From the NCBI GenBank assembly GCA_004431415.1, contig QPMI01000189.1:105493-169492 (forward strand): a DNA stretch of 64,000 nt. The letters are read 5' to 3'. Source of the stretch: Cyanophora paradoxa CCMP329 (lineage: Eukaryota > Plantae > Glaucophyta). The first letter of the stretch is position 1; each line of letters starts with the position of its first letter. Both the position numbers and the translations under genes were made by a program. Below the pieces are notes generated by a model, which made no database searches, was not told the DNA's origin, and saw only the letters and a list, made by a program, of their open reading frames with translations. Positions 17,600-44,753 of this stretch are shown here, in pieces.

Positions 17600-17605
17600 T
17601 ACGGG
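17600..17605 (+). other. Target-site duplication TACGGG (left copy)
   Basis: An identical hexamer TACGGG lies at 44748-44753, immediately outside the right TIR. Confidence 0.95.
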
Positions 17606-17676
17606 ACACATATAAAAACAAATATTATTATCCCTCGCGTTCCGCTCAGGATAATAATATTTGTTTTTATATGTGT
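17606..17676. repeat. Terminal hairpin: perfect 28-bp stem with 15-nt loop (mirrored at 44677-44747)
   Basis: acacatataaaaacaaatattattatcc (17606-17633) pairs with ggataataatatttgtttttatatgtgt (17649-17676). Confidence 0.95.
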
Positions 17677-17931
17677 GTTACTATAAGTTATATAAAGATA
17701 TTAGCATTTTTATCATAGTGTATATCGATATGTGATATGTATTCTATCGGTAGTTCGTAAATGAATCAATAAAAATAATATAAGTATCGTGGAATCTTTG
17801 TAAACTATGTATATATAATATGTAATCGCGATATAGCCGATATGTGTTTACGATGCGCGATGTGTATCTAAAACAACTACAATGTGCTGCTTGGGACGCG
17901 CCTCATATAGTCATGTGTATCACCTACGTAG

Positions 17932-18844
17932 CTTCGATAGGGTGGGGCGGGTGGGGTGAGGTGGGGCATTTTTTTGAATTCCCTAAAATGTTTCACTCCC
18001 AAAAATTCTTGGTCAAAAAAGACCCCACCCAACCCCACTTACCCCACCCTGTATTATTCTCTTTATCTATGATTGATTTCAATGTAATTTAAATATAAAT
18101 ATGTATGATTGAGTATGTTAAATTAATACTGGGTGGGGTGTGAGGGTGGGGTGTGAGTGGTATCGGTATGGTAGTCCAATCTAAGATGGCACACATAAAA
18201 TCATGATGTGTTATTTTTACTTCCGGTTTGATACTTATCGGACTTCGATAACTTCGATAGGGTGGGGCGGGTGGGGTGAGGTTGGGCATTTTTTTGAATT
18301 CCCTAAAATAATTCCCCCTCAAAAATTCTTGGTCAAAAAAGACCCCACCCAACCCCACTTACCCCACCCTGTATCTTTTATTATATTTATGATTGATTTC
18401 AATGTTATTAATGTATAAAGTATAGAGATTATGTATGTTAAATTAATACCGGGTGGGGTGTGAGGGTGGGGTGTGAAAGTGGTATCAGCCAACCATTTAA
18501 TAATTACGATATTGAACCGACGTGATACCGACGAGATATGATATATTCAGATCGTATTAGAACGGCGCGATCACTAAGAAAAACAAGTATCATGTGCTGT
18601 ATATTTCGCGATCCCTGAATCGCGAATCGATAGGGTGGGGTGAGAAAGTGGGGCACCACCCTCACTGTATACACTGTGATATGATCGCAATCCCGATGTA
18701 GCCTACTATGATATCGTGCGGACTTCGATAGGGTGGGGTAAGTGGGGTGAGGTGGGGCATTTTTTTGAATCCCTTCAATTTTTGGGGGGTCAAATATTTT
18801 TGGGCAAAAAAGACCCCACCCAACCCCACCCTCCCCACCCTGTA
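17932..18844. repeat. Three ~120-bp G-rich/C-rich palindromic units inside the TIR (~17932-18053, ~18252-18373, ~18723-18844)
   Basis: Each unit reads cttcgatagggtgggg(cg/ta)(g/a)gtggggtgagg…, then an AT-rich spacer, then gaccccacccaaccccac…ccccaccctgta. Confidence 0.9.
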
Positions 18845-19132
18845 TTACTTATCGATACACCTCACTTATTTCAATGTATAAACTTTATTAAATTAGATAG
18901 TAAATATGTATAGAAATAACGAGATTGTAGTATAGGGTGGGGTGTAGGGTGGGGGCAAAATGCAAACTGAATCAGTGCGATATAATTTAGTGAACACAAA
19001 GTGGATATGAAGTGGATACGAAGTGGATACGAAGGGGATAAGTGCGCCCCGCCCACTATGCAAGATACATGCCTTTCTTATGCATGATCTATGAAAAATA
19101 ACAATAAACCCCTCTCTCATTCTTCGAATTCT

Positions 19133-19396
19133 TTACATAGAAGCACTCACAGTAATTTCGCTTGCCTTTCGAACAGTCCCCCGATTAAATGCTTGCTCTA
19201 CAATCGCTTCCTTTGTGAGTGGAATCGGAATTCCAGCAGAAATACACGATTTAACTTCTTTGTCCACAATCTCATCAATCGCAATTCTCGCCCTATTATG
19301 AGCAGCATTATCGATCCAATCCTGAACAGAGTAGGCACAGTATTCCATTCCCAGTTTTTCAGTATCAGTTAGAACCACTTGATAGATGTTCGACAT
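19133..19396 (-). CDS. Small protein (87 aa) resembling phage tail-fibre-associated proteins
   Basis: Clean ATG ORF in the operon-like block. The motif LTDTE..MEY.A.S.QDWIDNA..NRARIAIDEI recalls small proteins found beside C1q-type fibres in marine phages (recollection, not searched). Confidence 0.6.
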   Translation of the reverse strand: MSNIYQVVLTDTEKLGMEYCAYSVQDWIDNAAHNRARIAIDEIVDKEVKSCISAGIPIPLTKEAIVEQAFNRGTVRKASEITVSASM

Positions 19397-19433
19397 TTCT
19401 AATCTTACTATTTATGAAGAAAATAATCAATTG

Positions 19434-20495
19434 CTAACAGCAAAGATGATATATGTATAAGGTAGATCGATTATCAATTGTTACAGCTCCATTGGAAAGC
19501 CCTGTCCATCCCCTGAAATATATTGTATCATTTGCAGCCAAGTTTAATATATACGTTGCATTCATAGCCGCATCTACATTAATAGCTGTATATGCACCCC
19601 CTGTCCAATTAGAATGATCATTTGTTGCTCCATTATAGACAAAGGTTACACCAGTTACAGTAGCTGATTCAGTATTTGTAAACCTCAGATGAACATTGAA
19701 TAAATATTTTCCAGATGCAGGAGCTGTAAATTTATACGTCGTTGTATTAAAAGCACTTCCACCTGAGCTTGAAATCACGTTATTGAATGGAATATTGAAT
19801 ATACCGATACTTGCTGTTGAAGATGTTGCTGATCGAACTCGCCAGTAAGAATGATTTGGAAGAGCAAGATAGCTATCCGTTCCATTAATTGTTAAACCTC
19901 TAAATGTCGTTGTGGCACTATTATTAGTTACAGTGGATGTGAAAGTAGAAGCAATATTAGCCCCATCTCGTTTAATGACCACTTCTGAGTTTCCTCCTGA
20001 GTCGATTGAATTCGTTTTAACCCCACCACTCGCTGTAAGAAGCCCTGAAAAAGTCCCAGTGCTTCCACTAACACCACCATTTGCTGTGAGTAATCCAGTA
20101 AATGAGCCCGTCCCACTAACTGTCGCATTCCCATTGACCCCTAAGCCAGTCCCAATCCATGCCCCGCCACTAACTACTTGAAAAGCCGCGGAATTCCTAT
20201 TAGCCGGATTGAAATCCGTTTGATAATCCGGTTGACCTTCATATAGATTATCTTTGGTAAACAGATCCCCTGTTTTTGCGGGTCGATTAGATACGATCAT
20301 TTGAGTAGCTTTAACGATTCCACCAGCCTTGTCGGCTCTGAGTTCTTTGACTCTGAGAATGGAGTTCTCATTGAAAGAATCGGATTTCGCTGTTTCAGTC
20401 GAAGGGAATGACTCGTTTAGATCATAGACTGTGTGTTGAACATTATGGACAGCACTGGCTGATAAGGAAAACACAGGTGTGAATACAGTCGACAT
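19434..20495 (-). CDS. Fibre-like protein with C-terminal C1q/TNF-like head (353 aa)
   Basis: Gly/Thr-rich beta-repeat shaft (GTGSFTGLLTANGGV/GTFSGLLTASGGV), then IPFNNV…FNTTTYKFTAPASGKYLF…ILNLAANDTIY, which matches the C1q-like pattern. Confidence 0.7.
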   Translation of the reverse strand: MSTVFTPVFSLSASAVHNVQHTVYDLNESFPSTETAKSDSFNENSILRVKELRADKAGGIVKATQMIVSNRPAKTGDLFTKDNLYEGQPDYQTDFNPANRNSAAFQVVSGGAWIGTGLGVNGNATVSGTGSFTGLLTANGGVSGSTGTFSGLLTASGGVKTNSIDSGGNSEVVIKRDGANIASTFTSTVTNNSATTTFRGLTINGTDSYLALPNHSYWRVRSATSSTASIGIFNIPFNNVISSSGGSAFNTTTYKFTAPASGKYLFNVHLRFTNTESATVTGVTFVYNGATNDHSNWTGGAYTAINVDAAMNATYILNLAANDTIYFRGWTGLSNGAVTIDNRSTLYIYHLCC

Positions 20496-20516
20496 CTTTT
20501 GATTGTTCTTTACTTA

Positions 20517-23519: not shown

Positions 23520-23556
23520 TATACTCTATTATGGAATACTACAAAAATTAAGGTTG

Positions 23557-26500
23557 TTACATAACGTTTGGAACATGTTCATATATTCTCCCTTCTCGCT
23601 GTGCCATTTCCGCCATAAAGTCTCTATCATTGTTCATCGTTTGCTCTGCCAATTCTTGTGCTCGTGATTTTTTGGGTGCTGCCCTATTTGCTGGTGGTCG
23701 GTCAGTCCTCACAACACTAAGACCATGCCCCTCGGCTGACCTCACCTCTAACCCAACATCTCCTTCGGCTGTTTGGGTCACATTCAGCTCAGGTGTTGAG
23801 TATTTATTTCCTGCACCTGCAATGGTTCTGTCTATGCATGCACAACACAAAGCTCGGAATTTGTATGCAAGCACAAGCCCAAGAGCACCGAGAATCGGCA
23901 AAAGAATCATAAGCACTAACGTTCCTGGATCAGTTCCCGGTGCTCCGACTGGATTTGTAGGATTTGTGGGATTATTAGGTGTTGTAGGATCAGTGGTAGG
24001 TGGGGTCTGTGGGTCTGACTCATCAGGAGGCAAGTTAGGATCTGAATCTGGGGGCGGTTCCGTCGACCCTGCTAATGAGGTTGGCGCTGTGTATGCATTT
24101 GCAAACACGATGGGAGCCGTCGCTGGATTTCCTGTGGAGGATCCTGAGATTGCACCATAGGTATCTGACAGATATTTATACAATTCCTGTGTCACAGGTG
24201 GATTGCTCACAGATCGACACACCCAAATATTGCATGTGGTATCATAGACTGTGTCCCTGATAAAGGGCGGTAGAGCCGTCCCACTGAATGACTCAAAGAA
24301 TCCATTTCGCGATAGCAATCGATGCCCTGCATCACAATTTCCACCCTCAAAATATTTGGTAGCCGAAATCGCACCTTGCACATAAATATTGCATGTCGAG
24401 TGCAATCCAATGTTATTTAGGTTAGGAGTGTATCTGTCATCAAGCCGGACAGTGCACACCCATGGGGAAGCGGTTTTTATATATTTCTTATCGCCTGCTG
24501 TGATCACATCAGTGTTTGGGTGGCTGTCAATTTGGGTAGCAATAGACTCATATTTGTAAGAGTAATAAACTAAGAGACCATCTGTGGAGGATGTAAAATA
24601 AAAGAAGTCTCTCATGAAGTCTGTGGATCCAAAGAAGTCAGCATTGGTCGATGTTAGGGTGACTCTGGGATAGCTCATGTTGACAGTCTCAGAAGGATAT
24701 GGAATATAAGAGGTGTAATAGCGATTTAACAGATAATAGTAAAATCCATCTGAGACATTCGAGTGAGTGGGCAAGGTGACTGTTAAGGTCTTACTGCGAT
24801 CCTCAAACGTTTTCTGTATGACAATGTTGCAAGTATTAATATATCGAGAATCGAAAAAGTAATTATTTGTGACTCTATTATCGATCAAAGTCGCATTGGT
24901 TCCATTAAACACGAAATTCTGCCCATTGATCCTCGTAGTGTGAATGTCTGTAACATCGAGAGGATACCTTATTTTTAATCGATCTTCGGGGTCAAATCGC
25001 GGAATAGTTCCTGTTGCCTTCCAACTGATAGTAAAGGGAGGAGCAAGGGACACTGCTGGGATAACAGAGAGATTAAATTTCGAAAAATACAACCCAACAG
25101 GATACCCTGACAGAGCATATGTCACTGTTGCATTTCCGACAAGTGTGAAGCCGGTGGTTGTAATGTTTGTCGCAACAAATGGGGAGTAGCCGGCTGGTGC
25201 ATTGTTAATAGAGGTGGTCGACCCATTATTGATCACATACAAATTCGTGTCAGTTATTTCAATAGTAGGAGGGGAAACAAATGGTGTCTCAAATGTGAAA
25301 TTAAAATTCGCTGGAACCGCTGCAAGGTATCTATATGTTGTTGCTGATATCTCGGATGCCTGGAATACTTTGCTTCCCCTCTGCACTACATTACTGGTGT
25401 CTTTCACATTGTGATAGGATATACTGGGAGTCGGGGAGAGCACCAACGAAATAGCATCTGGTAAATCAGACTTTGTAATATACAGCTCTTTAAGATACTC
25501 CTTTTTGAAAGGGGCGGTCAGATCTCCAATAGTAGCCGATGAACCTGCGACTACAATATTACAGGTGTTTGCACTCAAAGAGTAAACTGTGTTCCACCTT
25601 AAAGAATTCGCCCCAAGATCGAAATTCTGTGAGAAGGGCACGATATTGCTACCTTGTAAATCTCGGTAAACCTTTACTCTGGGTTTGCTATCGAATTCAG
25701 GGGTGATATAATTGATGGTAAGAGTGAAACTAATAGTAGCTTCGGAAGTCAATAAGTTGTTTCGGATGATAAGTAAATTGTATGTCTCGTTAATGACAAA
25801 CGAAACCTGAAACCCTGTGGAGGTGACATTTTGGATAAACGCTTTATTAGATTCATTATTGTTAGTGATAGGATTATAATAAGTTGTGTGATCCACCAAT
25901 GAAACAGTGGGTATACTCTCCAAACCTGTGACACCTAACTGATCCCAAGTGAATGTATATGTAGGTTTGCCTACATAAGCGACATAGACCCCATTTGCGA
26001 GCTGCTGAGGGTATCCCTCGACAGTGTAGGTCTCAGTCCGCGAAACTGAGCGGGAAAGGTTGCTATTAAAGTCGTTGTAGCTGATCAGAGCTCTCTCATC
26101 AGTGGGTAAATCACTGGGTCGGACTGAGTGATTGAAAGGCAAGATTATGTTACTTGTTTTTGAGGTCGTGCTATAAAGGTTAGTCGTGTGCAAGTCATCA
26201 AACCACCCATCATAGGCATACACATTCAGCCATTTCTTAACAGCATCAGTGTTAGACTGCCCGAGATTAAACTGATGATCGAGCAAAGGCACCAAATCGC
26301 GGGATAAATACATGATCGCATCAGTGATGGTGATTGCACCTGTTAAAACAGCGAGCCCTGCCGTGTTTGCTGCGGTAGCAATTGATAAACCCGAGATTTC
26401 GAGATCCTGGGCTACATCTCGCTCGTTTCTTGTGAATCGCTCACTATAAAACTCCTTTACAAGGTCGACCCCCATGACCTCAATTAAATGCGGTCGAGTG

Positions 26501-26871
26501 AGGGTGATATTGCTTGTGATGCTCTGCGAATATTTAACAGGATCCCATTCGACGACAGCTGTCAGTGGGATGGGGCGGGCTTTATTGATTTCGTGCTGGA
26601 AGGTTCGCACTGTGGGGAAATTGCTGCCAAAGAATGCAACAGGTGCGCCCCCATGATATATTACGAGGGCTGAGTTATCAGTGCCATAGGTAAAAGGGAG
26701 ATTGCTGGTGATATCGATATATTCAAGGTTGCTCTGGTTTAATAGAAAGTCTTTTACCACAAGGTTCGAGGATATGGTCACATTGGAAGCGGTAATGTTA
26801 CTGCTGAGCTCGAAACCGTCATCCAAATACAAGGTTTCCCGAGTGATAAAGGGGAGATTCGTGATACTCAT
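23557..26871 (-). CDS. Fibre-like protein (1104 aa) with Pro/Thr linker, C-terminal transmembrane helix and tail
   Basis: Two P…F(N/D)LG…W..VY fibre motifs, FTFETPFVSPPTI and SN/TCNI beta repeats. These are followed by a PPPDSDP…PTNP linker, LVLMILLPILGALGLVLAY, CCAC and a ~90-aa charged tail. Confidence 0.7.
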   Translation of the reverse strand: MSITNLPFITRETLYLDDGFELSSNITASNVTISSNLVVKDFLLNQSNLEYIDITSNLPFTYGTDNSALVIYHGGAPVAFFGSNFPTVRTFQHEINKARPIPLTAVVEWDPVKYSQSITSNITLTRPHLIEVMGVDLVKEFYSERFTRNERDVAQDLEISGLSIATAANTAGLAVLTGAITITDAIMYLSRDLVPLLDHQFNLGQSNTDAVKKWLNVYAYDGWFDDLHTTNLYSTTSKTSNIILPFNHSVRPSDLPTDERALISYNDFNSNLSRSVSRTETYTVEGYPQQLANGVYVAYVGKPTYTFTWDQLGVTGLESIPTVSLVDHTTYYNPITNNNESNKAFIQNVTSTGFQVSFVINETYNLLIIRNNLLTSEATISFTLTINYITPEFDSKPRVKVYRDLQGSNIVPFSQNFDLGANSLRWNTVYSLSANTCNIVVAGSSATIGDLTAPFKKEYLKELYITKSDLPDAISLVLSPTPSISYHNVKDTSNVVQRGSKVFQASEISATTYRYLAAVPANFNFTFETPFVSPPTIEITDTNLYVINNGSTTSINNAPAGYSPFVATNITTTGFTLVGNATVTYALSGYPVGLYFSKFNLSVIPAVSLAPPFTISWKATGTIPRFDPEDRLKIRYPLDVTDIHTTRINGQNFVFNGTNATLIDNRVTNNYFFDSRYINTCNIVIQKTFEDRSKTLTVTLPTHSNVSDGFYYYLLNRYYTSYIPYPSETVNMSYPRVTLTSTNADFFGSTDFMRDFFYFTSSTDGLLVYYSYKYESIATQIDSHPNTDVITAGDKKYIKTASPWVCTVRLDDRYTPNLNNIGLHSTCNIYVQGAISATKYFEGGNCDAGHRLLSRNGFFESFSGTALPPFIRDTVYDTTCNIWVCRSVSNPPVTQELYKYLSDTYGAISGSSTGNPATAPIVFANAYTAPTSLAGSTEPPPDSDPNLPPDESDPQTPPTTDPTTPNNPTNPTNPVGAPGTDPGTLVLMILLPILGALGLVLAYKFRALCCACIDRTIAGAGNKYSTPELNVTQTAEGDVGLEVRSAEGHGLSVVRTDRPPANRAAPKKSRAQELAEQTMNNDRDFMAEMAQREGRIYEHVPNVM

Positions 26872-26889: not shown

Positions 26890-27862
26890 TTAACCCGATA
26901 GCACCTCTAATATAAAGCTGTGATTAACGCCATTAAAGTTGACTACATTATTGTAGGCGTCGAGCCATTTAATTGTGAGGGTGTCTATATCATAAGCCTG
27001 ATCGTGGGAATTAAAGAACTCCACAGTATCGATTCTGCGGAATGTCAGGTAGTAAACAAACGATCCCAAGGGGCTGGTTAGTGGGATCTTAGCGAGGTTT
27101 GCATTTCCGCCCTCATCTGTCTTTGCTGCTACCATATACCTGTCGTAAAAGGGAGTAAACTCTTTAATTTGTAGGTAAACATAGGGGTCGGATTTAGATT
27201 AATCGCATTTGGAAGGTCACTGCATGTTCGAGAGGGAATGGAAGCACAGATATTCCGGCGGGGTATTTTGTTTTGCCCTCATAGGCTTGTAGAAATGAGT
27301 ATTTTGGATTGCTGGGTGTGAGGGGTAAATAGTCTACCGTGAGATGCTCTGAACCCTCACCAACTGGAATTGTTTGATAAATATCCCCTTTGATCATTCC
27401 ATGGAACCTTGCGAAGTCGTCATGTGCACAGCTCAGTGTGAGGGGAATGCTCGAATAAAACGTAATTTTCATAGTCGCTGGATTATAGAGCCACTTGTAG
27501 TAAACTGTGACGCTTTCGCTTGTGAGAGGGTTTACATCGACAAAGCTGCCCGAATAGCCTAAGTTCTTATTACCATATCCCCAAATCGCTGGGGTGTAGT
27601 TCCCAATATCAGGGAAAGGGGAAAAGGTGATGGTGTTCGTCATTCCCTGTATGGTCACGCCTCTGGAATTATCGGTGACAGCATAAATCGTGTTTGGGAG
27701 CTCGGCGCTCGCAATGCGCACCCCTTTTACGTTCAGAAGTCGCTGAGAAAGCTTTACTGTATATTCTCCCGGGTGCCCTGCACTGCGCTCAATAGAATCG
27801 ATATTAACATTGACCCTCGTAAACTTGCCATTATAGAAATCGTTAACTGGCTTCCGAATCAT
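26890..27862 (-). CDS. Minor capsid (penton)-like protein 1, broken by two 1-nt deletions (~324 aa restored)
   Basis: N-terminal NIDSIERS…YTVKL…NVKGVRIASAELPNT and GNY. Restored junction FPNAINLKSDPYVYLQIKEF. C-terminal LAKIPL…LTIKWLDAYNNVVNFNGVNHSFILEV. These are single-jelly-roll penton-type motifs. Confidence 0.7.
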
Positions 27863-27889: not shown

Positions 27890-29175
27890 ATGCGCGAGTA
27901 TCTCAGCATCAGTAGCCGTGATCGATCAGAGGGCTCGGCTCATTCCTATAAGGTGACCCTTCCAAAGCAATACCACAATGTGAAGAGCATCGCTGTGCGA
28001 CAGATCGAATTTTCCAACACGATTCCCACGGTTCCAAGCCCTCAATTCTATACTGAGATCGGGAAACGAAAGCCGATGATGCTAATACGATTTTCATATC
28101 ATTTCCTTACCGATTTTCGAGCGGTCAGCTGAATGGTGCCACTCAGGAAATCAGAGATTCACAGGCAACTGCAATATATGACGCTTACAAAGCCATAGAT
28201 GCTGGCGACCAAGGCAACTATATACCGCCTGATTACCTAAACACTTTCAGAAGATATACCCGATACAGAGACGTAGCAATTACGATCCCTCCGGGCACAT
28301 ACTCGACTGGAACCGACCTTGCCACTGCAATCGATAACATCTTAACGAAAAATGGAACTGGCAACTACATCAAGGATATGATCGACACAAAAATTAATCC
28401 AAGCTACGCATCGACAGGAGGAACCTTTTACCCGGTGGTGAGATGTCGTTTTGAGAGCACATTAAATGCTATATGCTTTTATTCGAGTGATTATGTCTAC
28501 ATAGCTTTCACGAAATATGGACCGAGTAATGCCACTGCGTCTACTGCGAATGAAAGAAAGGTGCTCGCCTATCGCACGATGACTCTTCTCGGGTTTACAT
28601 CGATCAGAGAGAATATAATGATAGATCAATACAACGGATCGGGCTACACAGCCTTCGCTGGGAGCGGTGTCGTTTACTCAGCTGGTGATGCATTCCGCAA
28701 TTATAATTCGACGGCTCTGGTCTTAGGCATAGCCGGAGGCACTGCCCCGGATTATACACCGGATAATGCAATAGTTTTAAAGATCACAGAGCCGGACTGC
28801 TCGCTTTTTACGACATGCACCGAGGCTACTAATGGATTCCTCGCTAAGATCCCGATTTCGAAAGGCACAGCCTATGCTGATGCTGAGCTAATTAATTATG
28901 GGGCGGATGCTTTCACGAAATACTTTAACACCCGCCTCTCCTTTGATAGTTTAACCGTTCAAATTCTCACGGAGAGCGGTTATAGGTATTTCCTCGGAAG
29001 CTGCGAGCACACATTCATTTTGGAAATTACTATGGGAGTGGATGAGCCCGACGACGATTTACAGCGCATTGTTAATAAGGGATTCGCGAAAATGCTCTAT
29101 GAGGACTACCCGCATTGCGGCAATTTAACGAATGCGTTGAGCGGGGTGGCTGTAAAAAATAATCCGTTCTTCTAA
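27890..29175 (+). CDS. Minor capsid (penton)-like protein 2, one 1-nt frameshift near 28062 (~428 aa restored)
   Basis: MREYLSISSRDR…YKVTLPKQYHNVKSIAVRQIEF, ITIPPGTY, FLAKIPI and FDSLTVQILTE…EHTFILEI parallel penton-like protein 1. Confidence 0.7.
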
Positions 29176-31758: not shown

Positions 31759-32682
31759 ATGACTGGAAACGTGAGTATAGAAGATCTTGCGGAATTCGAC
31801 CCGGCAAGTCTTTCATTCCCTTGCCGTTTACTTGCTGTCGGAAAAACGGGAGTAGGTAAGTCAGTATTCTTAAAATACCTGCTTTACCACAACGAGGACA
31901 AGATAGATTCGGTGATGATATTCGCTTCCACGATCTGGAACCATCAATATGACAATGTCACATCGTATTTGTATGAGGATTTCGATCATAAGCTGATCGA
32001 CAATATAATACAGAAACGCAAGGAGCGAATCAAGAAAAAGGAGAAAGTCGGTAACCTGTTAATCATACTCGATGATTTCATTGACAATCCAAGTCTTTCG
32101 ATGTCAGGAAGAGGTGAACCTATATTAAATCAGCTATTCACGTCGGGGCGCCATTTATTCATATCTGTGTGGATTCTGTCACAAAAACTCACTAAGATTT
32201 CGCCGACACTTAGGGTTAACTCCGAATATATCTTTCTATTCTCGCTGCCCAACAGAAAAGAGATGGAGAGTGCTGAGGACGAGTTTAATCCATACGAAAA
32301 GCATTGGTTTGAGAAGGTGATGAACGAATACAGTCACAGCTATCAGGTTATCTGCATTGACAACTCGAAATATAGCCTGGAATTCTCTGTGGGCAAGGCT
32401 GATCCGGTGCCTGACGAATATAAATTCAAGCGGTTCTTTAAAAAAGCGGTGGAAGAGATAAAGCCCGCTGGTAAACAGCCGGTAAAACAGAGCTCCACAG
32501 AGGTAAATGGCGACCAACCCCAAACCACCGATATAACGAAACCTGTGAGTGGAAACGTCGCCACCTTAAAGCGATCCACCAAAAGAATAATCGAAGCCGA
32601 CCTACTTAAAGACCCCAATCTATTGCTGGCATACCAAGAAAAGCGCCGCCCAAAATTTGCAAAGAAATTGGGTAAATTTTGA
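31759..32682 (+). CDS. A32/FtsK-HerA-type genome packaging ATPase
   Basis: Walker A GKTGVGKS, Walker B LLIILDD, GRHLFIS and SQKLTKISPTLRVN. Confidence 0.9.
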   Translation: MTGNVSIEDLAEFDPASLSFPCRLLAVGKTGVGKSVFLKYLLYHNEDKIDSVMIFASTIWNHQYDNVTSYLYEDFDHKLIDNIIQKRKERIKKKEKVGNLLIILDDFIDNPSLSMSGRGEPILNQLFTSGRHLFISVWILSQKLTKISPTLRVNSEYIFLFSLPNRKEMESAEDEFNPYEKHWFEKVMNEYSHSYQVICIDNSKYSLEFSVGKADPVPDEYKFKRFFKKAVEEIKPAGKQPVKQSSTEVNGDQPQTTDITKPVSGNVATLKRSTKRIIEADLLKDPNLLLAYQEKRRPKFAKKLGKF

Positions 32683-32705: not shown

Positions 32706-33377
32706 ATGCCACCCAAGAACTCGCGGAAAGCTATCCAAATGGAAGATCAAAGCGCTGTTGTCGCTGGCAAGATTAATCCTGCGGAGGATGCCGGTCGCAC
32801 TGGTGGTGCTGCGGCTTCTGACCAAATAGATTTCGACCTAATTGATCCGAATACCAAGGTTTCAGAGCGTGCTCAAAAGGTGGATGCTAAGCGGGAGCCG
32901 GTCGATTCCACTGACAGAAAGCTGGCGGATCAATCCCTCGCTGAATCACAGCTCACAGGGGAAAAGCTTACTGATAATAAGGTGGTAAAAGCCGAAGCCA
33001 CAGCCGCTTTACCTGCATCGATGGAAGCCCCTAAAAAGCGGGCATCTGTCTATGTGACCAAGGGTGAGAAAGTCGGTCAGGAATTAGAGGAGAAGTTTAG
33101 GGCGCTGGAAGCGCGACTGGCTACCTACGACACTACTGTGAGAGCCTTTGATGATTTTACCAAGGACTACAAACAGCGCAAGCTGATTAAACAGGCTGTT
33201 CGAGTGGAAATGGAAAAGAAGCGGGCAACTGTTCCCGATATTCAGACAGTCGAGAAAAAAGAGACAGTCATAGCTGAAAATGCACCAAAGCCGGGCGGTT
33301 TCGTTAACCCATCGGGTGTGCATGCACAGCCGGGTGCCAATCTGTCATCTATGTTTGGTGGGCGTCGTCGCTTCTAA
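32706..33377 (+). CDS. Hypothetical coiled-coil viral protein (223 aa)
   Basis: ATG ORF preceded by the element's AT-rich TTTCTC upstream motif. No domain recognised. Confidence 0.65.
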   Translation: MPPKNSRKAIQMEDQSAVVAGKINPAEDAGRTGGAAASDQIDFDLIDPNTKVSERAQKVDAKREPVDSTDRKLADQSLAESQLTGEKLTDNKVVKAEATAALPASMEAPKKRASVYVTKGEKVGQELEEKFRALEARLATYDTTVRAFDDFTKDYKQRKLIKQAVRVEMEKKRATVPDIQTVEKKETVIAENAPKPGGFVNPSGVHAQPGANLSSMFGGRRRF

Positions 33378-34543: not shown

Positions 34544-36887
34544 ATGGACACCAAAAGTAAATCGATGCTCACCAAACTCACTAAGTGGCTTCGTTCGACC
34601 GATGAGCTGGCTCAAAACCTCCTTATTCCGGTCGATCCTGTAACCAAACAACCTGAATTTCCCCATAAAAATGGAGCCTGGAACTGGAAGAAATACGAGG
34701 ACGCCGTTAAGGAAAACAGGTATATTGCATGGGGAATTCTCGCTCGCAACATCGTCTGTATTGATTTCGATCAGGAGGAGGATTTCAATAAGTTCGAAGA
34801 GCTTTTCCCCAACGATTTCACAGCTGCTATTCCAATCGAGAAAACAAGCAAGGGTTATCATGTGTTCTTCGCTCGACCTCCCAAGTTCGATGAGCTGAAA
34901 CTGTTTGACAAACCCGGAGCTTTCCGGGGCTATGATAAGATCGATCTGAAAACGGTTTGCTCTACTGGAACTGCCGGGTAATTAATGTCTGCCCAAGCCC
35001 AAACAAGACATGGATCAGGGAGCCATGGGCTGCTGAATGCGAGTTAATTGAGCCATCTGCGGAATTCCAAAGCTGGATGATTGAGAACTACAAAAAGCCG
35101 TTCGTCCGTGACATTGATCAGTCGAAGATACATGGCAATGAATTCCTTACAGCTCTCAAAGACAAACTAACTGAGTTCGGGTTCGATTTCCCAACAATCA
35201 TCAGTCAAACCGAAAATGGCTACAACTTCACAGCTCAGAACAAAGGCGGAGTCTGCCCTGCTGCACCAATTCGCATGATAGCAATAGCTGGTATGTGATT
35301 AAAATTTCAGATCCCGATGCAAAGGACAAATTCATTGTTTCGAGTTACAGTTCTCGATGCAAGAAGCGAATTATTGAGGTCAGGACGAAAACTGAAAAGG
35401 ATACTGAGCTGATAGTTCTCATTGATAAGGCAATTGGATCGAATGGCGCACACTATGATGTCGCGAAAGTGTCGCATGTAGTTCTCAATGATGATTATCG
35501 CTACTCAAATAAGACCTGGTTCGAGTTTAACAGGGATAATGGAATCTGGGAGATGGATGACACTGGAAAACGAATTTATCTTGCACTCAGCTGCAAGGTA
35601 TGCCCTGTGTTTCTGTCTCGCTCATATAGCCTGGGAACAGCTGCGATGAGGGACGAAGAGAATAGGCAAAGCTTAGAGGAAAAGGCTAAACTCGCTGTGA
35701 ATATTGGCAAGAATCTCAAACAAACATCCTATCGCACATCTCTTATTACTGATCTAATTGTTATGTTCAGCGATCCCACATTCTTTGAGAAACTCGATAC
35801 TGTCACTAATGTCATTGGTTTCGATAATGGGGTCTTTGATATTAACACCAAGACATTCAGAAAGGGAAAGCCTACTGATATGGTGAGCAAGACAGTGGGT
35901 TACGAGTATATGGCTGTCGACCGTGAGAAAGTAGCGAAAATTCAGTCAATCTATACAGATATAATCGAAGAGTATGAGGAGCGCAATTATATTCTCGGGT
36001 CGCTTGCTTTCGCTCTCACAGGTCGCACAGATATTCAGAAGTTCAATTTCTGGTCTGGAAAGGGCGCGAATGGGAAATCCTGCATTCAAGAGATGGTGAA
36101 ACAGACTTTCGGCGATTATTTCGGCTCAATCAGCATGAGCTATTGGACAAAGCCAAAGAAGAACTCGTCCGATGCCACACCCGAGCTTGCTGCAATTCTG
36201 GGCAAACGCATTGTGTTCAGTAATGAGGCGGAGGATGGTGACAAGCTCCAAATCAGTAAGATTAAGGAAATCACAGGTGGAAATGAGATGAAGGTTCGCG
36301 CTCTCTTTAAGGATCCTGTAACCTTTATTCCCATGTGTCAAATATTCCTGTCCACCAATGATAACCTGTCTCTCAGCAAGGCTGACGAAGCTATTTTGCG
36401 AAGGCTGGTTTACTACACATTCAAGTGTGTATTTAAGCCGAATCCCAAGGAGGGCGAAAAGAAAGCTGATACCAAGCTGATGACTCTATTGCATGATGAT
36501 GAGTATAAGATGGCGCAAATGTCTATTTTCCTGGATATGCTCGCCCAACAAGACCTTGCCACTTTGATGCAAAACCCACCCCAATCGATTGTCGACTGTG
36601 GCTCTGAGTATTTCGCTGAAAATGATAAGCTCGGCGAATGGCTCAAAAATACCTATGAGAGGACTGGAAGCCGCGATGACTTTATTTCGAGTGACTCTAT
36701 TGTGAAGAAATATAGACAGGTCGATGATAAGGCGGAGCCCACAACAATTGGAAAGCGAGTTCGCGAGATATTCAATGTTAAATCCGAGCCCAAGCGGGAG
36801 AGAGGCGCACTGATGCGCGGCTATTTCGGAATGAAAGCCAAGATGCACCACCAAAACGAATTTCTAGATGATGATATCGAAGCCTAA
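34544..36887 (+). CDS. Prim-Pol primase fused to D5-like SF3 helicase, two 1-nt frameshifts (~781 aa restored)
   Basis: IVCIDFD and EKTSKGYHVFF (Prim-Pol). Restored CPCC…H Zn motif. FDNGVFD (D5_N), Walker A GKGANGKS and KEITGG…VRALF (SF3). Confidence 0.85.
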
Positions 36888-37430: not shown

Positions 37431-40400
37431 ATGCCCCGCCAAACTAATCGCCTTATAAAAAAGAAAAAGGACGAAATATTAGGCTTGTTAGGTAGTCTTT
37501 TAGTCACTGGCGAGATCAACGAAGCCGAATACGATCGGAGGGCGGCGATCTTAGATCGAAAACCCCGCTTAGCTAACCTTGCAAATATTGCCGACGAGCT
37601 CTATAATCGCCTGGAAAATGTGGAGCGCTTCTATACCGAAGGGCGGCGCTTAGCCGTCATAGAACCTGATGAGGAAGACGGTTTCGCAATGAATAAAGCA
37701 TACGCCTGGTATAGCTATAAGGCGGATGAACAGATAATCTTAGATCCGGTGGAATTTCTCACTACCATCGCTGCAAATCTGCCTGGGCGGCTGAAAGAGA
37801 GGCTGGACGAGCTTAAAGCTATTAAGGTGCGCCTTACATTCATCTGCCGATACGTAAAAGTGAGTGATCCTAACGTTTTTATCACCAAACACATTTACAG
37901 CGATTATTTCGTAATCACAAGGTCGCGCAATATTCTCACTGAGTTAGTGGGTGTAGCTCAGCAAATGAATGAACAGATGATACAGGTCGACAGCTACCGG
38001 CTCAGTAAATTAGATAAGCTACATGTCGCCGTTTTGTCATATGCGCCGATGGGCGGTTGCTACATTGAGACCCCCGAATGGATTGGATTAAAGCGAGCCA
38101 CAGTAAATATTAAGAATATCGATGGTCACGACTGTTTTAATTACGCTATCCTCGCATGGCTGCACAGAAACGACATAAACAGACACAAACGTAATGATCC
38201 GTTCCAATATAGGCGGTGGATGACTGAACTCGACTTCTCAGGCATTAACTTCCCGGTGGCATGCGATGCTGCATTAATAGATCGGTTCGAGGCAAATAAT
38301 CCCGAGCTGTCAATTAATATATATGGCGCCGACAATGCGACCCAAACCTTTTACCCATTGCACATGTCAAGTAATCCGCGTCGCAAATCAAAGGTAAACC
38401 TGCTGCTGATCGAGGACGCAAACGGACAAGGTCACTATATAACGATAATGTCACTGAGCCGCCTATTAAAGACCACCTTTGATAAAGCAAACGACGGGCG
38501 CATTTTCTACTGCGAAACCTGCTTGTCCCGGTTTAGATCACAGGAGAAACTCGATAGCCACACCGAATCTAATCGCTGTATCGATTGGAGAATGAGTAAA
38601 GGTAAATGCCCGGAGCCCGGAAGCTTTATTACTTTCGGACTGCAACACCTAAGGAAAATGGTGTGGCTGCCCACGGTCTGCTATTGCAAGGTAGAAATGG
38701 AGTCGGTGCCGGTTCCTAATGAACCAAATCGAACCAAGCGAGAGGTAAAGTCGGTGGCACTTAATGTTGTTATGGGCTCTCATGTTGAAAATCACGAATT
38801 CGAGGGCGTGGATCCGCTGGGACAGATGTTTACCACGTTAGGGGATCTGTGTCGCGAGATGCTTAATACCCTATTTACCAACACGCCTATGATCCCGCTC
38901 ACAGAGGCGCAAAAGCAAGCCTATAAGCTGACCAAACACTGCTATATATGCAATCAGCGGTTTACCCACGAAAACTTCCATGTGCGCGATCACTGTCACC
39001 AAAGCGGCGATTATATAGGGAAAGCTTGCCGAAAGTGCAATTTACATAGGCGGATCTCAAAGCAAACGAAAGTAGCCGTGGTTATTGATCGGATGGACGA
39101 GTGCGGGCATGCTATATTCAGGAAAATCGCACAGCAAGACGACAAGCTGCGGGTCGAGATCCTAAGTAAGAATTTCGATGAGTATCTCTCTTTACAGTGG
39201 GGACTTTACAAATTCATAGATGCATCGAATTTCATGGATTTTCAGGCGTCCGATGTTAATGATCTCATGGTAAAATTCGGTAAATTCAGTATGCTCGCAC
39301 ATGAGCAATACGGACTGGATCCCACGCATTATGTGAGCGCACCGGGACTATCGTGGGACGCGATGTTAAAGCATACGAGGGTCGCGATAGAACAGATCAG
39401 CGATGCGGATCACTACGAATTTATTGAGCGGGCAATTAGGGGCGGCTTTGCGACCATGCCCACACGATATGCCGAGGCTAATAGCGAGGATAAACATATA
39501 GTGCTATTGGATGCGAATAATCTGTATGGCTATGCGCTCAGTCAGCCTTTACCGGTCGGGGACTATCGCTGGGACGACACAAGCACAGCTTTTACCGAGG
39601 TCGTAGGGCGGAGTGCATTTATAGAGGTCGACCTTGCGTATCCGGACTATTTAAAGGGCGACCATCGCGATTTCCCGCTGATCGTGAGTAAAGAGGTAAT
39701 TACTGCGGACATGCTCGGCAAATATCAGCGTGGGCTTTTGGAGATTAGCGGCGAGAAGCTCAGTAAAGATCCGAAGCTGATCGCCTCATTTACCCCGAAA
39801 TATAATTACGTGGTCTCTCAGCCGATGCTGCTCTATATGGTGCGGAAAGGCATCGTAGTTACTAAGATCCACCGCGTGCTCTCGTTTGCAACCGCTGCAT
39901 TTATGAAGCCCTATATAGATCTGAACACGAAGCTGCGAAAGGAAGCCCGGAATAAATTCGAGAGCGACTTCTTTAAATTAATGAACAATGCTATTTACGG
40001 TAAATGTCTGGAATCGTGCCGCGGGCGCTCCGTGGTAAAGATCGCGAATAGCACGAAGCTGTTTAAGAAATATGCGGCGAGCCCACTGGTAAAAGCGACG
40101 AATGTATTAAACGAGACTGCGGTCGCCTTTGAAATGTATAGTAAACACGTAAAACTCGATAAACCGGTTGCGATTGGCGCTTATGTGCTGGATGCCGCGA
40201 AGCTACATAATTATAGCTTCTTTTACGACGTGATCCGACCCACATGGTCGCAAGCTCAGCTGCTGTTCCACGATACCGATTCGTTCTGTCTGTATATAGA
40301 GAGCGCGGATCTGGAAGCGGGCATGCGAGCGATCAGCCCTTATTTAGATTGCCCTTATAGTCCCGAGAACCGGATGGTTCCCGGTAAATATAAAAATGAG

Positions 40401-40694
40401 ATGCCGGACGTCAAGATAGTGGAGTATGTGGGACTGCGACCGAAGCTATATGCTTTCCGCACCGAGAGCTACGACAAGGTAAAAATGAGCGGGACAGCCT
40501 CGAAAGAGGTGCATTTCGACGACTTTAAGCGCTGCCTATTTGACGGGATCACAAAAACAGTAACAGTAGTAAACAAGCAACGGCGATGCCACCACTTATA
40601 TGATTTGGAGAGCAAGCGGATAGCGCTGACCCAATTCGATGGCAAGCGCTGCATATCAGGCGACGGCATACATAGCCTTCCATTCGGCTGTTAG
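37431..40694 (+). CDS. polB: Protein-primed family B DNA polymerase (Polinton type) with EndoVII-like insertion
   Basis: DANNLYG, KLMNNAIYGK, HDTDS and LRPKLYA polymerase motifs. CYIC…VRDHCH…ACRKCNL EndoVII-like domain and SAPGLSWDAML, as in Polinton pPolB. Confidence 0.93.
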   Translation: MPRQTNRLIKKKKDEILGLLGSLLVTGEINEAEYDRRAAILDRKPRLANLANIADELYNRLENVERFYTEGRRLAVIEPDEEDGFAMNKAYAWYSYKADEQIILDPVEFLTTIAANLPGRLKERLDELKAIKVRLTFICRYVKVSDPNVFITKHIYSDYFVITRSRNILTELVGVAQQMNEQMIQVDSYRLSKLDKLHVAVLSYAPMGGCYIETPEWIGLKRATVNIKNIDGHDCFNYAILAWLHRNDINRHKRNDPFQYRRWMTELDFSGINFPVACDAALIDRFEANNPELSINIYGADNATQTFYPLHMSSNPRRKSKVNLLLIEDANGQGHYITIMSLSRLLKTTFDKANDGRIFYCETCLSRFRSQEKLDSHTESNRCIDWRMSKGKCPEPGSFITFGLQHLRKMVWLPTVCYCKVEMESVPVPNEPNRTKREVKSVALNVVMGSHVENHEFEGVDPLGQMFTTLGDLCREMLNTLFTNTPMIPLTEAQKQAYKLTKHCYICNQRFTHENFHVRDHCHQSGDYIGKACRKCNLHRRISKQTKVAVVIDRMDECGHAIFRKIAQQDDKLRVEILSKNFDEYLSLQWGLYKFIDASNFMDFQASDVNDLMVKFGKFSMLAHEQYGLDPTHYVSAPGLSWDAMLKHTRVAIEQISDADHYEFIERAIRGGFATMPTRYAEANSEDKHIVLLDANNLYGYALSQPLPVGDYRWDDTSTAFTEVVGRSAFIEVDLAYPDYLKGDHRDFPLIVSKEVITADMLGKYQRGLLEISGEKLSKDPKLIASFTPKYNYVVSQPMLLYMVRKGIVVTKIHRVLSFATAAFMKPYIDLNTKLRKEARNKFESDFFKLMNNAIYGKCLESCRGRSVVKIANSTKLFKKYAASPLVKATNVLNETAVAFEMYSKHVKLDKPVAIGAYVLDAAKLHNYSFFYDVIRPTWSQAQLLFHDTDSFCLYIESADLEAGMRAISPYLDCPYSPENRMVPGKYKNEMPDVKIVEYVGLRPKLYAFRTESYDKVKMSGTASKEVHFDDFKRCLFDGITKTVTVVNKQRRCHHLYDLESKRIALTQFDGKRCISGDGIHSLPFGC

Positions 40695-41105: not shown

Positions 41106-41714
41106 ATGGCGTATCTGTTCAAAGGACAACCTATTTTCGTTTATCCTCTTTCGGATCTATCATTTAGCACCGTGGAACTATTTGATATCCTCTTTTCATT
41201 TGATACTGATCGCATGCCATTTACCTTTGTAAATACAATCTTTCGTAGAGCCGATATTCAATCTATTGGTTTCTTTATTGAAGAACCGCACAAGATAGTC
41301 ATTCGATCAATAAATAATGTGTTTGCGTATGTAAGAGCATCCAACGATGAGATATCCTATAAGTATACCATCAAGAAAGTAAATGATGAAGACGAGGGAG
41401 GATATCAACCTGTTCTGGATTTCTGGCGTCTCGTAAGATGCACACAATATAAGATGACTGATGTAATCAAAGCCATAAAGCGTGAGCACGAACCACAGTC
41501 GATACAGCTTATCTATTTCAATGTTAAACGCAATCTGTCCACATATCATAAGAAGTTTGAAGAGCATGGACTGCAAATTACCCGCCGCACCACCTTGCGT
41601 AAATTCTTAAAAGACAATGGAGCGAAATGGAGTCGCGTTAGCCGAATGTGGTATACTGACGTTAGTAATCCTAATAGAATCGTTGCCAATATATTCTGTC
41701 CCAATTTACCGTAA
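41106..41714 (+). CDS. Hypothetical viral protein (202 aa)
   Basis: ATG ORF preceded by the conserved 25-nt upstream motif at 41066-41090. Confidence 0.65.
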   Translation: MAYLFKGQPIFVYPLSDLSFSTVELFDILFSFDTDRMPFTFVNTIFRRADIQSIGFFIEEPHKIVIRSINNVFAYVRASNDEISYKYTIKKVNDEDEGGYQPVLDFWRLVRCTQYKMTDVIKAIKREHEPQSIQLIYFNVKRNLSTYHKKFEEHGLQITRRTTLRKFLKDNGAKWSRVSRMWYTDVSNPNRIVANIFCPNLP

Positions 41715-41777
41715 ATAAACAATACCTTCTATTGTTTGGTGCGAGTAAAATGTTACATTGATCTTTTTTATTGTCTG

Positions 41778-43220
41778 ATGACAAGGATGTCAAGACCGCC
41801 AATAGTAAGACGATCGCAAGATTTAGAGGGGAGCACATTGCCGATCCCCGTGCCGAAAGAGAATAAAGAGAGCCGCATAGTAAAGCGGTCTGATTTAAAG
41901 GCTTTGGTGCCCCGCGACGTGCCCGTAGCCCTTGCTGTCCCGGAGCAATCGAAAATCGCGCGTAAATTCTACGATCCGCAAACCGGTTTCAAAGGGATCA
42001 CTAAGCTACGGCAAGAGCTGCCCGATGAGAATTATAAGAAATTGCAAGAGTGGTATAGCCGGCAAGAGGTCGTCCAAATTAATGCGCCGCACCTATCCCG
42101 CAAACGAGACCCCGCAATCCCGATTCGACAGCCCCTCGATACCTACGTAATTGATCTGCTATTCTTTCCGGCGTATGCTAAGTATAATGACGGCTACCAA
42201 GCGTTTTTAACTGGGATGGAGAACACGTTGCGGGTCGGCTATATTATACCGATGCGGGACAAGTCGGCTGCATCGACCTTAGCCGCCTTTATACAGCTGC
42301 AAAATAAGGTGCCGAGACCAATTTTTAAGATTCAAAGCGACCGCGGCTCAGAATTCACTAATAGCCTGTTAAGAGAATATTTCGAGAATCAGTTTATAGA
42401 ACATCAGATTGCGGACACAGCCGACCATCGCGCGCAAGGGCGCATAGAAGCATTTAACAAGCAAATGCGGCGGCTGATCACGAGCTACTGCATCGCGAAT
42501 AATACGGCGCGATTTATAGATGTCCTGCCCGAGTTAGAATATAACTATAATAATACGGTGCACTCTGCGACCGGCTATATGCCTGCCGAGACCAACGAGA
42601 GTCACTATAAGCTTATAGTGCAAAAAGAAGATGCGAAATTCAAGAAATCGATAGCTTATTTGGATCAGATTCAGCCGGGCATGTCAGTAAGGCTACGCAT
42701 CGAGAAGACGCCATTCGCTAAGGGCGGTAACAATTGGAGCCGGATCGTATACACTGTCGCCGGGCGCGAGGGCTATAAGTTTATGCTAACTGATCCGGAC
42801 GGCAATCGCGTAGAGGGTCGCTTTGCCTTCCACGAGCTATTGCCTGTCCAAGCTGTGGATTACCTAATGGCGCCCACAGTAGACGCATTAGAAGCGGCAA
42901 AGGACGAGGCGCGCGTCGATGCGCAATTGCGTAGAGAGGGCATAGAAGCCGCCGCGACTGTGCCGCAAGGCACTCTATTAGAGGATCGCGTGCAAAAAGA
43001 GAAACGCGTAAATAAAGAATTACAGCGGCTAGTAACCGCCGCCGAGCCTAAGCTATCCGGCGGCGTGAATAGCCAACGATGGTATAAGTCGTTCTCTAAT
43101 CAGACTGAGAGCTATAAAGCGCCGGAAACCAAAGCTACATTAAGAAGTAGTAGAAAAGTAGCAACGGTAGCGCCGGTAGTTAATGGCGATCGAAAAGCGA
43201 CTCTGAGACCACGAAAGTAG
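41778..43220 (+). CDS. Retroviral-type (rve) DDE integrase
   Basis: YVIDLLF (D), IQSDRGSEF (D), QGRIEAFNK (E) and YNNTVHSATGYMP, as in Polinton c-integrases. Consistent with the 6-bp TSD. Confidence 0.92.
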   Translation: MTRMSRPPIVRRSQDLEGSTLPIPVPKENKESRIVKRSDLKALVPRDVPVALAVPEQSKIARKFYDPQTGFKGITKLRQELPDENYKKLQEWYSRQEVVQINAPHLSRKRDPAIPIRQPLDTYVIDLLFFPAYAKYNDGYQAFLTGMENTLRVGYIIPMRDKSAASTLAAFIQLQNKVPRPIFKIQSDRGSEFTNSLLREYFENQFIEHQIADTADHRAQGRIEAFNKQMRRLITSYCIANNTARFIDVLPELEYNYNNTVHSATGYMPAETNESHYKLIVQKEDAKFKKSIAYLDQIQPGMSVRLRIEKTPFAKGGNNWSRIVYTVAGREGYKFMLTDPDGNRVEGRFAFHELLPVQAVDYLMAPTVDALEAAKDEARVDAQLRREGIEAAATVPQGTLLEDRVQKEKRVNKELQRLVTAAEPKLSGGVNSQRWYKSFSNQTESYKAPETKATLRSSRKVATVAPVVNGDRKATLRPRK

Positions 43221-43307
43221 TAGGCGCCGCGGTGCTTTCGTAGCCGCCAAATCGCGCCCTTTGCGAATCAGACCGCGCCGCTTTGTAGTAGCGTAGAACT
43301 ACTCTAT

Positions 43308-44747
43308 GCGCACTTATCCCCTTCGTATCCACTTCGTATCCACTTCATATCCACTTTGTGTTCACTAAATTATATCGCACTGATTCAGTTTGCATTTTGC
43401 CCCCACCCTACACCCCACCCTATACTACAATCTCGTTATTTCTATACATATTTACTATCTAATTTAATAAAGTTTATACATTGAAATAAGTGAGGTGTAT
43501 CGATAAGTAATACAGGGTGGGGAGGGTGGGGTTGGGTGGGGTCTTTTTTGCCCAAAAATATTTGACCCCCCAAAAATTTAAGGGATTCAAAAAAATGCCC
43601 CACCTCACCCCACTTACCCCACCCTATCGAAGTCCGCACGATATCATAGTAGGCTACATCGGGATTGCGATCATATCACAGTGTATACAGTGAGGGTGGT
43701 GCCCCACTTTCTCACCCCACCCTATCGATTCGCGATTCAGGGATCGCGAAATATACAGCACATGATACTTGTTTTTCTTAGTGATCGCGCCGTTCTAATA
43801 CGATCTGAATATATCATATCTCGTCGGTATCACGTCGGTTCAATATCGTAATTATTAAATGGTTGGCTGATACCACTTTCACACCCCACCCTCACACCCC
43901 ACCCGGTATTAATTTAACATACATAATCTCTATACTTTATACATTAATTACATTGAAATCAATCATAAATATAATAAAAGATACAGGGTGGGGTAAGTGG
44001 GGTTGGGTGGGGTCTTTTTTGACCAAGAATTTTTGAGGGGAATTATTTTAGGGAATTCAAAAAAATGCCCACCTCACCCCACCCGCCCCACCCTATCGAA
44101 GTTATCGAAGTCCGATAAGTATCAAACCGGAAGTAAAAATAACACATCATGATTTTATGTGTGCCATCTTAGATTGGACTACCATACCGATACCACTCAC
44201 ACCCCACCCTCACACCCCACCCAGTATTAATTTAACATACTCAATCATACATATTTATATTTAAATTACATTGAAATCAATCATAGATAAAGAGAATAAT
44301 ACAGGGTGGGGTAAGTGGGGTTGGGTGGGGTCTTTTTTGACCAAGAATTTTTGGGAGTGAAACATTTTAGGGAATTCAAAAAAATGCCCCACCTCACCCC
44401 ACCCGCCCCACCCTATCGAAGCTACGTAGGTGATACACATGACTATATGAGGCGCGTCCCAAGCAGCACATTGTAGTTGTTTTAGATACACATCGCGCAT
44501 CGTAAACACATATCGGCTATATCGCGATTACATATTATATATACATAGTTTACAAAGATTCCACGATACTTATATTATTTTTATTGATTCATTTACGAAC
44601 TACCGATAGAATACATATCACATATCGATATACACTATGATAAAAATGCTAATATCTTTATATAACTTATAGTAACACACATATAAAAACAAATATTATT
44701 ATCCTGAGCGGAACGCGAGGGATAATAATATTTGTTTTTATATGTGT
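43308..44747 (-). repeat. Right terminal inverted repeat (1440 bp)
   Basis: Reverse complement of 17606-19047. Confidence 0.95.
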
Positions 44748-44753
44748 TACGGG
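44748..44753 (+). other. Target-site duplication TACGGG (right copy)
   Basis: Matches 17600-17605. Confidence 0.95.

Follow-up and report, generated by a model that had tools for sequence, protein, structure and literature searches.

The window analysed here is a stretch of 64,000 nucleotides from the glaucophyte Cyanophora paradoxa CCMP329 (contig QPMI01000189.1, positions 105,493 to 169,492), and it contains an integrated element with the structure and gene content of a Polinton-like virus (PLV). The element occupies positions 17606-44747 (27,142 bp), has a GC content of 43.6%, versus 73.4% in its flanks, carries the termini ACAC...GTGT and is bordered on either side by the target site duplication (TSD) TACGGG. 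An earlier note, made from the sequence alone, had described a ~27.1-kb island with 1.44-kb terminal inverted repeats (TIRs) differing at about four sites, a perfect 6-bp TSD and these same termini, all of which was borne out. The span given there (17600-44753) takes in both copies of the TSD, and the description "AT-rich" holds relative to the host but not in absolute terms. Of the 24,260 bp that separate the TIRs, 22,370 are taken up by open reading frames (ORFs). The termini and the genes for replication, integration, capsid formation and packaging are as follows (positions in the window):

17600..17605: left TSD, TACGGG
17606..19047: left TIR, 1442 nt, which contains three diverged repeats of ~240 nt
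17606..17676: left terminal palindrome, 28-bp perfect stem and 15-nt loop (folding z -11.4)
26890..27862, minus strand: penton-like protein 1, frame-broken near 27210; DUF5901, E 0.024
27890..29175, plus strand: penton-like protein 2, frame-broken near 28060
29209..30655, plus strand: putative double jelly-roll major capsid protein (MCP), with frame breaks near 30034 and 30153
31759..32682, plus strand: A32-type packaging ATPase, Walker A and B present; Pox_A32, E 9.7e-11, above the cut-off
34544..36887, plus strand: archaeo-eukaryotic primase-polymerase (AEP) / SF3 (D5-like) helicase, frame-broken at two places
37431..40694, plus strand: protein-primed DNA polymerase (pPolB), 1087 aa, with a helical N-terminus, a predicted terminal protein (TP) fold (87-207), a vOTU domain (214-344; C235/H335), a degenerate exonuclease with an EndoVII-like insert, and a palm with intact motifs
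41778..43220, plus strand: rve integrase with a D-D-E triad
43308..44747: right TIR, 1440 nt
44677..44747: right terminal palindrome (folding z -11.7)
44748..44753: right TSD, TACGGG

Twenty of 24 short-read runs, all from one organism, contained 76-79% of the sequence words, and four of these 20 were compared with the window over positions 16700-36600. The contigs from these runs pool many copies, and their depth is a rough guide only. Of the four differences between the TIRs, two are one-base indels and two are substitutions; the short-read contigs agree with the right TIR at both of the latter, so the true divergence of the TIRs may be lower. Each end of the element bears a 71-nt palindrome with a perfect stem of 28-29 bp directly adjoining the TSD, and none of 200 shuffled sequences folded as well as either palindrome. 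The terminal 20-mer had no match among viral contigs. The two TIRs of the window share a base at position 17805 and the mirrored position on the right, where the dominant contigs of all four runs have another base; this is a copy-specific variant at both ends, as expected if the TIRs are homogenised at replication. The ~240-nt repeats, three per TIR (17929-18050 and paralogous copies), form G-rich/C-rich imperfect hairpins (z -4.9).

The minus-strand flanks of the element are the two halves of a single F-box/LRR-like gene, split by the insertion:

44786..45291, minus strand: host F-box/LRR-like gene, exon upstream of the intron predicted from sequence (donor 44785)
17141..17582, minus strand: same host gene, putative exon downstream of this intron (acceptor 17583), in which the frame continues

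With the element and one TSD copy removed, the donor (GT, 44785) and the acceptor (AG, 17583) would delimit a 55-nt intron across which the reading frame is continuous; similar intron-like motifs in the flanks (n=65) have a median length of 65 nt. The element was thus probably inserted in a 55-nt host intron. At the left junction, the support is a single contig of run X4, which reaches 28 nt into the left TIR from the host flank and so falls short of the 31-nt bridging rule. An unexplained joint (17287-17630) was found at single-copy depth in three of the four runs, beside a skipped repeat. The TSD, the split host gene and the short-read support speak against the whole element being an assembly chimera, and this reading was rejected.

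In the Pfam search, pPolB, Pox_A32, D5/DUF5906 and C1q passed the cut-off, which Prim-Pol narrowly missed and rve also failed to reach. The integrase matched foamy-virus integrase (E 2.6e-8), with D, D and E all in place, and the helicase matched C962R of African swine fever virus and poxvirus D5. The pPolB, rve integrase, A32 ATPase and Prim-Pol/SF3 helicase named in the earlier note were therefore all recovered, the integrase through its foamy-virus match.

The gene at 29209..30655 is taken to be a double jelly-roll MCP on the basis of its homology to a protein referred to here as P0001 and of a published HHpred result for the latter, both of which support the probable MCP proposed earlier. 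The unbroken 271-aa N-terminal piece had two matches among 1,835,955,588 representatives, P0001 (41%) and P0002 (37%). P0001 is a C. paradoxa protein of 456 aa, and its similarity to the window MCP runs through all three frame pieces (40-51%), exceeding the level of at least 25% identity to a listed member of the Cyanophora MCP clusters 18/26. It was tied by contig name, protein length and visible letters to a row of Table S2 of PMC10120064, where an iridovirus MCP is given as its HHpred match, at 98.47%. In the same paper, 366 C. paradoxa MCPs are counted (Tables S1 and S4), in two clusters of 272 and 94, which are designated "new" and correspond to unnamed clusters 18 and 26 (numbers by column count). 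In the Atlas, the N-terminal piece pointed to Capsid_N clusters of the type found in nucleocytoplasmic large DNA viruses (NCLDVs), at 0.97-0.98, with recognition under the threshold. The AlphaFold check suggested in the earlier note, run on the intact homologue, gave a model of low confidence (pLDDT 34); even so, the top seven of 48,161 chains for its N-terminal half were jelly-roll capsid or scaffold proteins, at a modest Z of 5.0-5.9. Foldseek comparison of this model with the PDB gave nothing significant (the PBCV-1 MCP was at rank 8, E 0.17), and comparison with BFVD gave one unnamed match. None of 4902 candidates matched in the comparison of the N-terminal piece with longer proteins, the MCP profile recovered only P0001 and P0002 among 7998 scored proteins, locus scans of viral and metagenome contigs with the ATPase, MCP and pPolB yielded no relatives, and no solved relative of the MCP profile or of the ATPase was found by sequence.

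A search with the pPolB found 157 homologues with an E value of at most 1e-20, and the figures below refer to the best 120 of the 157 (P0003 and 119 others). P0003 is 46% identical to the window enzyme over its full length; the other listed homologues are partial matches with 29-40% identity, and those with names come from animals. The AlphaFold model of the window enzyme, built from 106 sequences, has a pLDDT of 88.5. In this model, residues 413-1066 resemble phi29 polymerase (Z 19.0, 482 aligned, rmsd 3.2), residues 87-207 the Y-family little-finger fold (Z 9.1 and 8.4) and residues 214-344 OTU domains (Z 7.6), and the enzyme is thus predicted to have the TP-vOTU-palm layout described in 10.1101/2024.03.18.585575. 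The enzyme retains the Cys and His of the vOTU domain and has intact polymerase motifs A-C. The best matches in BFVD were bidnavirus-like (annotated "densovirus") and adintovirus enzymes, with mavirus at rank 42.

The exonuclease differs from that of almost all the listed homologues. The ExoI Asp is replaced by Lys in the window enzyme and by Gln in P0003, whereas it is Asp in 112 of the 119 others (seven gaps); the ExoII Asn and Asp are gone from both, and are kept in 112 and 114 of the 119 others, respectively. The segment before ExoIII has 33 aa in the window enzyme and in P0003, versus 121-213 aa in 117 of the 119 others, the two exceptions being one of 108 aa and one N-truncated fragment. 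About 90 residues have thus been lost from the exonuclease, a loss common to P0003; this and the open ORF rule out an assembly error as its cause. In phi29 polymerase, loss of the first two Exo aspartates abolishes proofreading. Judging from its sequence, the exonuclease of the window enzyme is catalytically degenerate and would be proofreading-dead. According to 10.1101/2023.08.22.554363, integrase-linked pPolBs keep the Exo motifs in all taxon groups, and 10.1101/2024.03.18.585575 describes exonuclease loss alongside helicase gain in mavirus and Tlr1-type PLVs. The window pPolB, with its separate SF3 helicase, looks like another independent case of "exonuclease loss, helicase gain", and this is the simplest reading because the window enzyme and P0003 form a long branch of their own and are not mavirus-like. 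In a FastTree analysis of the palm region (119 of 121 rows, two short ones having been dropped), the two enzymes were joined with a support of 1.0 on a long branch, nested inside the homologue set; deeper support was weak and the tree has no outgroup, so it gives neither donor nor order of events. The exonuclease-dead pPolB and the terminal palindromes are distinctive features missed by the earlier note. No description of either was found for Cyanophora elements in a literature search that covered few subscription papers.

Six frame breaks fall in four genes of the window, namely those for the MCP, the two penton-like proteins and the AEP-SF3 protein. In all four runs, one-base indels appear in the contigs wherever the capsid and penton genes are broken (four sites), in every contig of every run at three sites and in part of the contigs at the fourth. 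Three of these four sites coincide with short G/C runs, and the contig over the primase-helicase contains two gaps. Such assembly artefacts have been documented in multi-copy elements (PMC10120064; Bellas 2023). Given the one-base indels in the contigs of all four runs, the breaks are probably assembly errors, although contigs that pool copies do not prove the window locus itself to be intact. The depths over the host flank, 19368-20092, the MCP region, the homing endonuclease and the primase-helicase were 78.5, 70.8, 2013, 437 and 365 in run X2 and 88.5, 101, 2989, 585 and 511 in run X4; in run X16, the last four segments had depths of 46, 941, 289 and 204. MCP depth is thus about 20-34 times that of single-copy segments, which suggests that the family numbers some 20-30 related copies and that about a fifth of these have the AEP-SF3 helicase. 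The earlier description of a complete, recent insertion was upheld: the element is a real, recently inserted and probably intact endogenous PLV.

The remaining ORFs of the element are as follows:

19133..19396, minus strand: 87-aa ORF, sub-threshold match only
19434..20495, minus strand: 353-aa fibre-like protein with a C-terminal C1q domain, 3' part near single-copy by depth
20517..23519, minus strand: 1000-aa fibre-like protein with phage tail-fibre repeats (PHROGs)
23557..26871, minus strand: 1104-aa probable fibre or spike, with a weak H_lectin match (E 7.5e-4) under the cut-off
30761..31711, plus strand: zinc-finger homing-type endonuclease, optional (a contig skips 30637-31487)
32706..33377, plus strand: 223-aa ORF, possible core protein
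41106..41714, plus strand: 202-aa ORF

The two penton-like genes, which lie beside the MCP gene, are paralogues of each other by sequence, the DUF5901 match of the first being weak; they are putative pentons by motif resemblance. Two of the three fibre-like proteins claimed in the earlier note were supported, through the C1q domain and through matches to phage tail or tail-fibre PHROGs, the latter including those of the 1000-aa protein; the 1104-aa protein has only its sub-threshold H_lectin match. The fibre region (19400-26900) is highly mosaic among copies, with many joints, loose ends and repeat-number variants, and the C1q tip (19368-20092) is near single-copy, so that the fibre tip is near-unique to the window copy. 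Receptor-binding diversification is a possible explanation for this pattern. The homing-type endonuclease is a mobile insert within the virus family, since a contig in all four runs skips it and it is present at about six times single-copy depth. The 223-aa ORF ends in MFGG-RRRF, which we take to resemble the adenain cleavage consensus, though no adenain gene was found. The motif AWTTTCTCRS, a candidate viral promoter, lies upstream of four of 17 start codons, those of the MCP, the 223-aa ORF, a small ORF and the 202-aa ORF (sites within 29170-29208, 32670-32705, 34100-34145 and 41060-41105).

No protease family was detected, at HMMER sensitivity, in Pfam (21 element ORFs and 73 further segments), PHROGs or NCBIfam, and the element has no Q-x-CG motif. 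The earlier statement that no protease is recognisable therefore stands for the adenain type but not in general, the pPolB bearing a vOTU cysteine-protease domain (Cys235/His335). A module without a protease is typical of Aquintoviricetes, with the protease present only in virophages and one cluster (PMC12220804), and OmPLV likewise has none (PMC12721341). Protease-less PLVs are thus common, and the absence of a protease was rejected as a novelty, together with the claim of an unusual gene complement.

In the host flanks, positions 46700-63100 contain genes for mevalonate diphosphate decarboxylase, a nucleotide-diphospho-sugar transferase, dynamin, a ubiquitin hydrolase, a BSD2-domain protein and an ERCC4 nuclease. 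The decarboxylase and the BSD2 domain suit a photosynthetic host that is not a chlorophyte and, with the MCP relative P0001, make a glaucophyte host likely. Tandem 114-bp units, mostly ~98% identical, lie at 3073-5196 inside an apparent long coiled-coil gene on the minus strand, and a non-coding-looking patch of lower GC content (~53%) at 14100-14900.

We consider it probable that the element is a complete, recently integrated copy of a multi-copy PLV of the Cyanophora type, inserted by its rve integrase and copied by an exonuclease-deficient, protein-primed pPolB that relies on the SF3 helicase. The rve integrase likely inserted the element into the short host intron. Priming by the TP would take place at either end of the linear genome, where the terminal ACAC microrepeat would suit slide-back initiation; the vOTU domain would free the TP, and the AEP-SF3 helicase would unwind the duplex. 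Packaging by the A32 ATPase would follow, into a jelly-roll capsid that carries two pentons and at most three fibres and undergoes no adenain maturation, and the integrase would put the genome back into host DNA. Dependence on a giant virus is possible. Several observations weigh against this reading. The AlphaFold model of the intact MCP homologue, built from three sequences, yielded no MCP fold; the ExoIII Asp is possibly kept in one of two alignments; and the predicted TP priming loop has Asp where 94 of 104 homologues carry Ser, with no Gly or Pro nearby. Contig depth is not true copy number, and as the AEP-SF3 gene is covered at only about a fifth of the depth of the MCP gene, this helicase may be missing from most family members.

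These points bear on three other readings, which overlap in part with the one we favour and with each other. The terminal palindromes might fold back, or the AEP might prime, leaving the pPolB, with its altered TP loop and dead exonuclease, to elongation only. We regard this as unlikely, although it would account for the perfect terminal stems directly adjoining the TSD, the loss of the conserved TP-loop Ser and the presence of an AEP primase in the element, and terminal palindromes occur mainly in non-pPolB elements in 10.64898/2026.07.28.741278, where hairpin priming is proposed. That model is itself a proposal only, however, and the TP fold and the vOTU Cys and His are retained here. Moreover, D-S-Y at the predicted priming loop is common to the window pPolB and P0003, enzymes that are only 46% identical, as expected of a relocated priming residue. 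Retained protein priming is itself probable, and is favoured because the TP fold, the vOTU domain and the conserved Ser/Tyr persist. Less likely still is that the AEP-SF3 replicase is displacing the pPolB, or the reverse, and that the two occur together here as a transient mosaic, without being a co-adapted pair. The low depth of the AEP-SF3 segment and the loose ends near 35.9 kb are consistent with such turnover, dual replicases are seen as transient states in 10.64898/2026.07.28.741278, and pPolB swaps are documented (10.1101/2023.08.22.554363 among the sources); yet no polymerase motif is damaged and P0003 retains the same exonuclease loss, which argues that the pPolB is not decaying.

The least probable of the three is that the window copy is a decaying relic, with truly pseudogenised capsid, penton and helicase genes. 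The six frame breaks suggest this, the pooled-copy contigs do not prove the window locus intact, and viral genes in C. paradoxa are methylated and silent according to PMC12344493. The breaks nevertheless concentrate in multi-copy genes, mostly at short G/C runs, the contigs of every run being unanimous at three of the four listed sites. The ORFs of 1000-1100 aa are free of in-frame stops, and the TIRs differ at no more than four of 1442 sites.

Endogenous PLVs are common, and to our knowledge no glaucophyte virus has been isolated. The element might represent a glaucophyte-infecting lineage outside the named PLV groups, with an NCLDV-type capsid and an animal-Polinton-type polymerase caught in mid-transition: a third independent loss of proofreading would follow those in mavirus and the Tlr1-type PLVs, the priming serine would be displaced and replication would start from terminal hairpins. 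We judge this about as improbable as replicase turnover. If true, protein-primed Polintons and hairpin-ended viruses would be linked by a living intermediate. The compact, intact pPolB ORF makes testable the idea that exonuclease loss is offset by helicase gain (10.1101/2024.03.18.585575), to which it would add one more independent case, in which part of the exonuclease scaffold survives. The terminal palindromes beside a TP-bearing pPolB likewise make two priming modes directly comparable (hairpin idea of 10.64898/2026.07.28.741278). The exonuclease-dead pPolB with a helicase and palindromic ends is what is new and testable here; the PLV lineage and the protease-less gene set were already known.

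PLVs can be defined operationally as elements of 14-40 kb, bounded by TIRs and integrated with a TSD, with an A32-like ATPase, a double jelly-roll MCP and a single jelly-roll penton. The element agrees with this definition in size, TIRs and TSD, in its ATPase and, by homology only, in its MCP. Polintons end in AG...CT (a background feature not found in the passages of the cited papers), unlike the ACAC...GTGT of the window element. It resembles Group 1 Maverick-Polintons and Alpha-adintoviruses (Polintoviricetes) in its pPolB with an EndoVII insert (~35% identity, named matches from animals) and the TP-vOTU-palm layout, its rve integrase, its A32 ATPase, its 6-bp TSD and its long TIRs. It differs from them in the absence of a detectable adenain protease, a degenerate exonuclease in place of conserved ExoI-III motifs, its NCLDV-type capsid leads, the additional AEP-SF3 protein and the terminal palindromes.

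With mavirus and the EMALE virophages, the element has in common an exonuclease-reduced pPolB, a separate SF3 helicase and an rve integrase, a combination that is analogous only, the pPolB belonging to another clade; these virophages also form low-GC, TIR-flanked insertions in a GC-rich protist, some of them in introns (PMC8547959). A maturation cysteine protease belongs to the core module of mavirus-type virophages (PMC8547959), but none was found in the element, and its MCP leads are of the NCLDV rather than the virophage type, albeit with a poor MCP model. A mavirus-type virophage was rejected as the identity of the element. Halocafeteria PLVs of subtype 4 and virophages with terminal palindromes (10.64898/2026.07.28.741278) also have an rve integrase and a palindrome in the TIR directly adjoining the TSD, but palindromes there are preferentially associated with non-pPolB replicases, whereas in the window they accompany a TP- and vOTU-bearing pPolB. 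The NCLDV-related PLVs (Zoravirus, VC218, Zephyrvirus and Mriyaviruses; 10.64898/2026.06.19.733378) are similar in their size of 20-30 kb, their TIRs and, in some groups, the rve integrase, and the window MCP leads also point to NCLDV-type capsids. The HUH endonuclease and VLTF2/3, features of Mriyavirus and Zoravirus, had no match in the Pfam and PHROGs scans of the element ORFs, and the accessible part of that paper does not mention Cyanophora or glaucophytes.

The closest known relatives are the Cyanophora MCP clusters 18/26 of PMC10120064, whose member P0001 is ~40% identical to the window MCP along its length. For these clusters, MCP counts and single genes are reported, and no genome-level account of polymerase, termini or palindromes was found in the accessible part of the paper; the element thus gives a genome-level view of large, unnamed virus clusters. 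The distinct lineage proposed in the earlier note holds as regards divergence, with two MCP matches among 1.84 billion representatives and no relatives in the viral and metagenome contig scans, but not as regards novelty, since the lineage was already catalogued in PMC10120064 as "new", unnamed clusters. The element is a PLV of this already counted, unnamed Cyanophora-type lineage and works like a mavirus-style integrating virus, but the features tested set it apart from both virophages and canonical Polintons.

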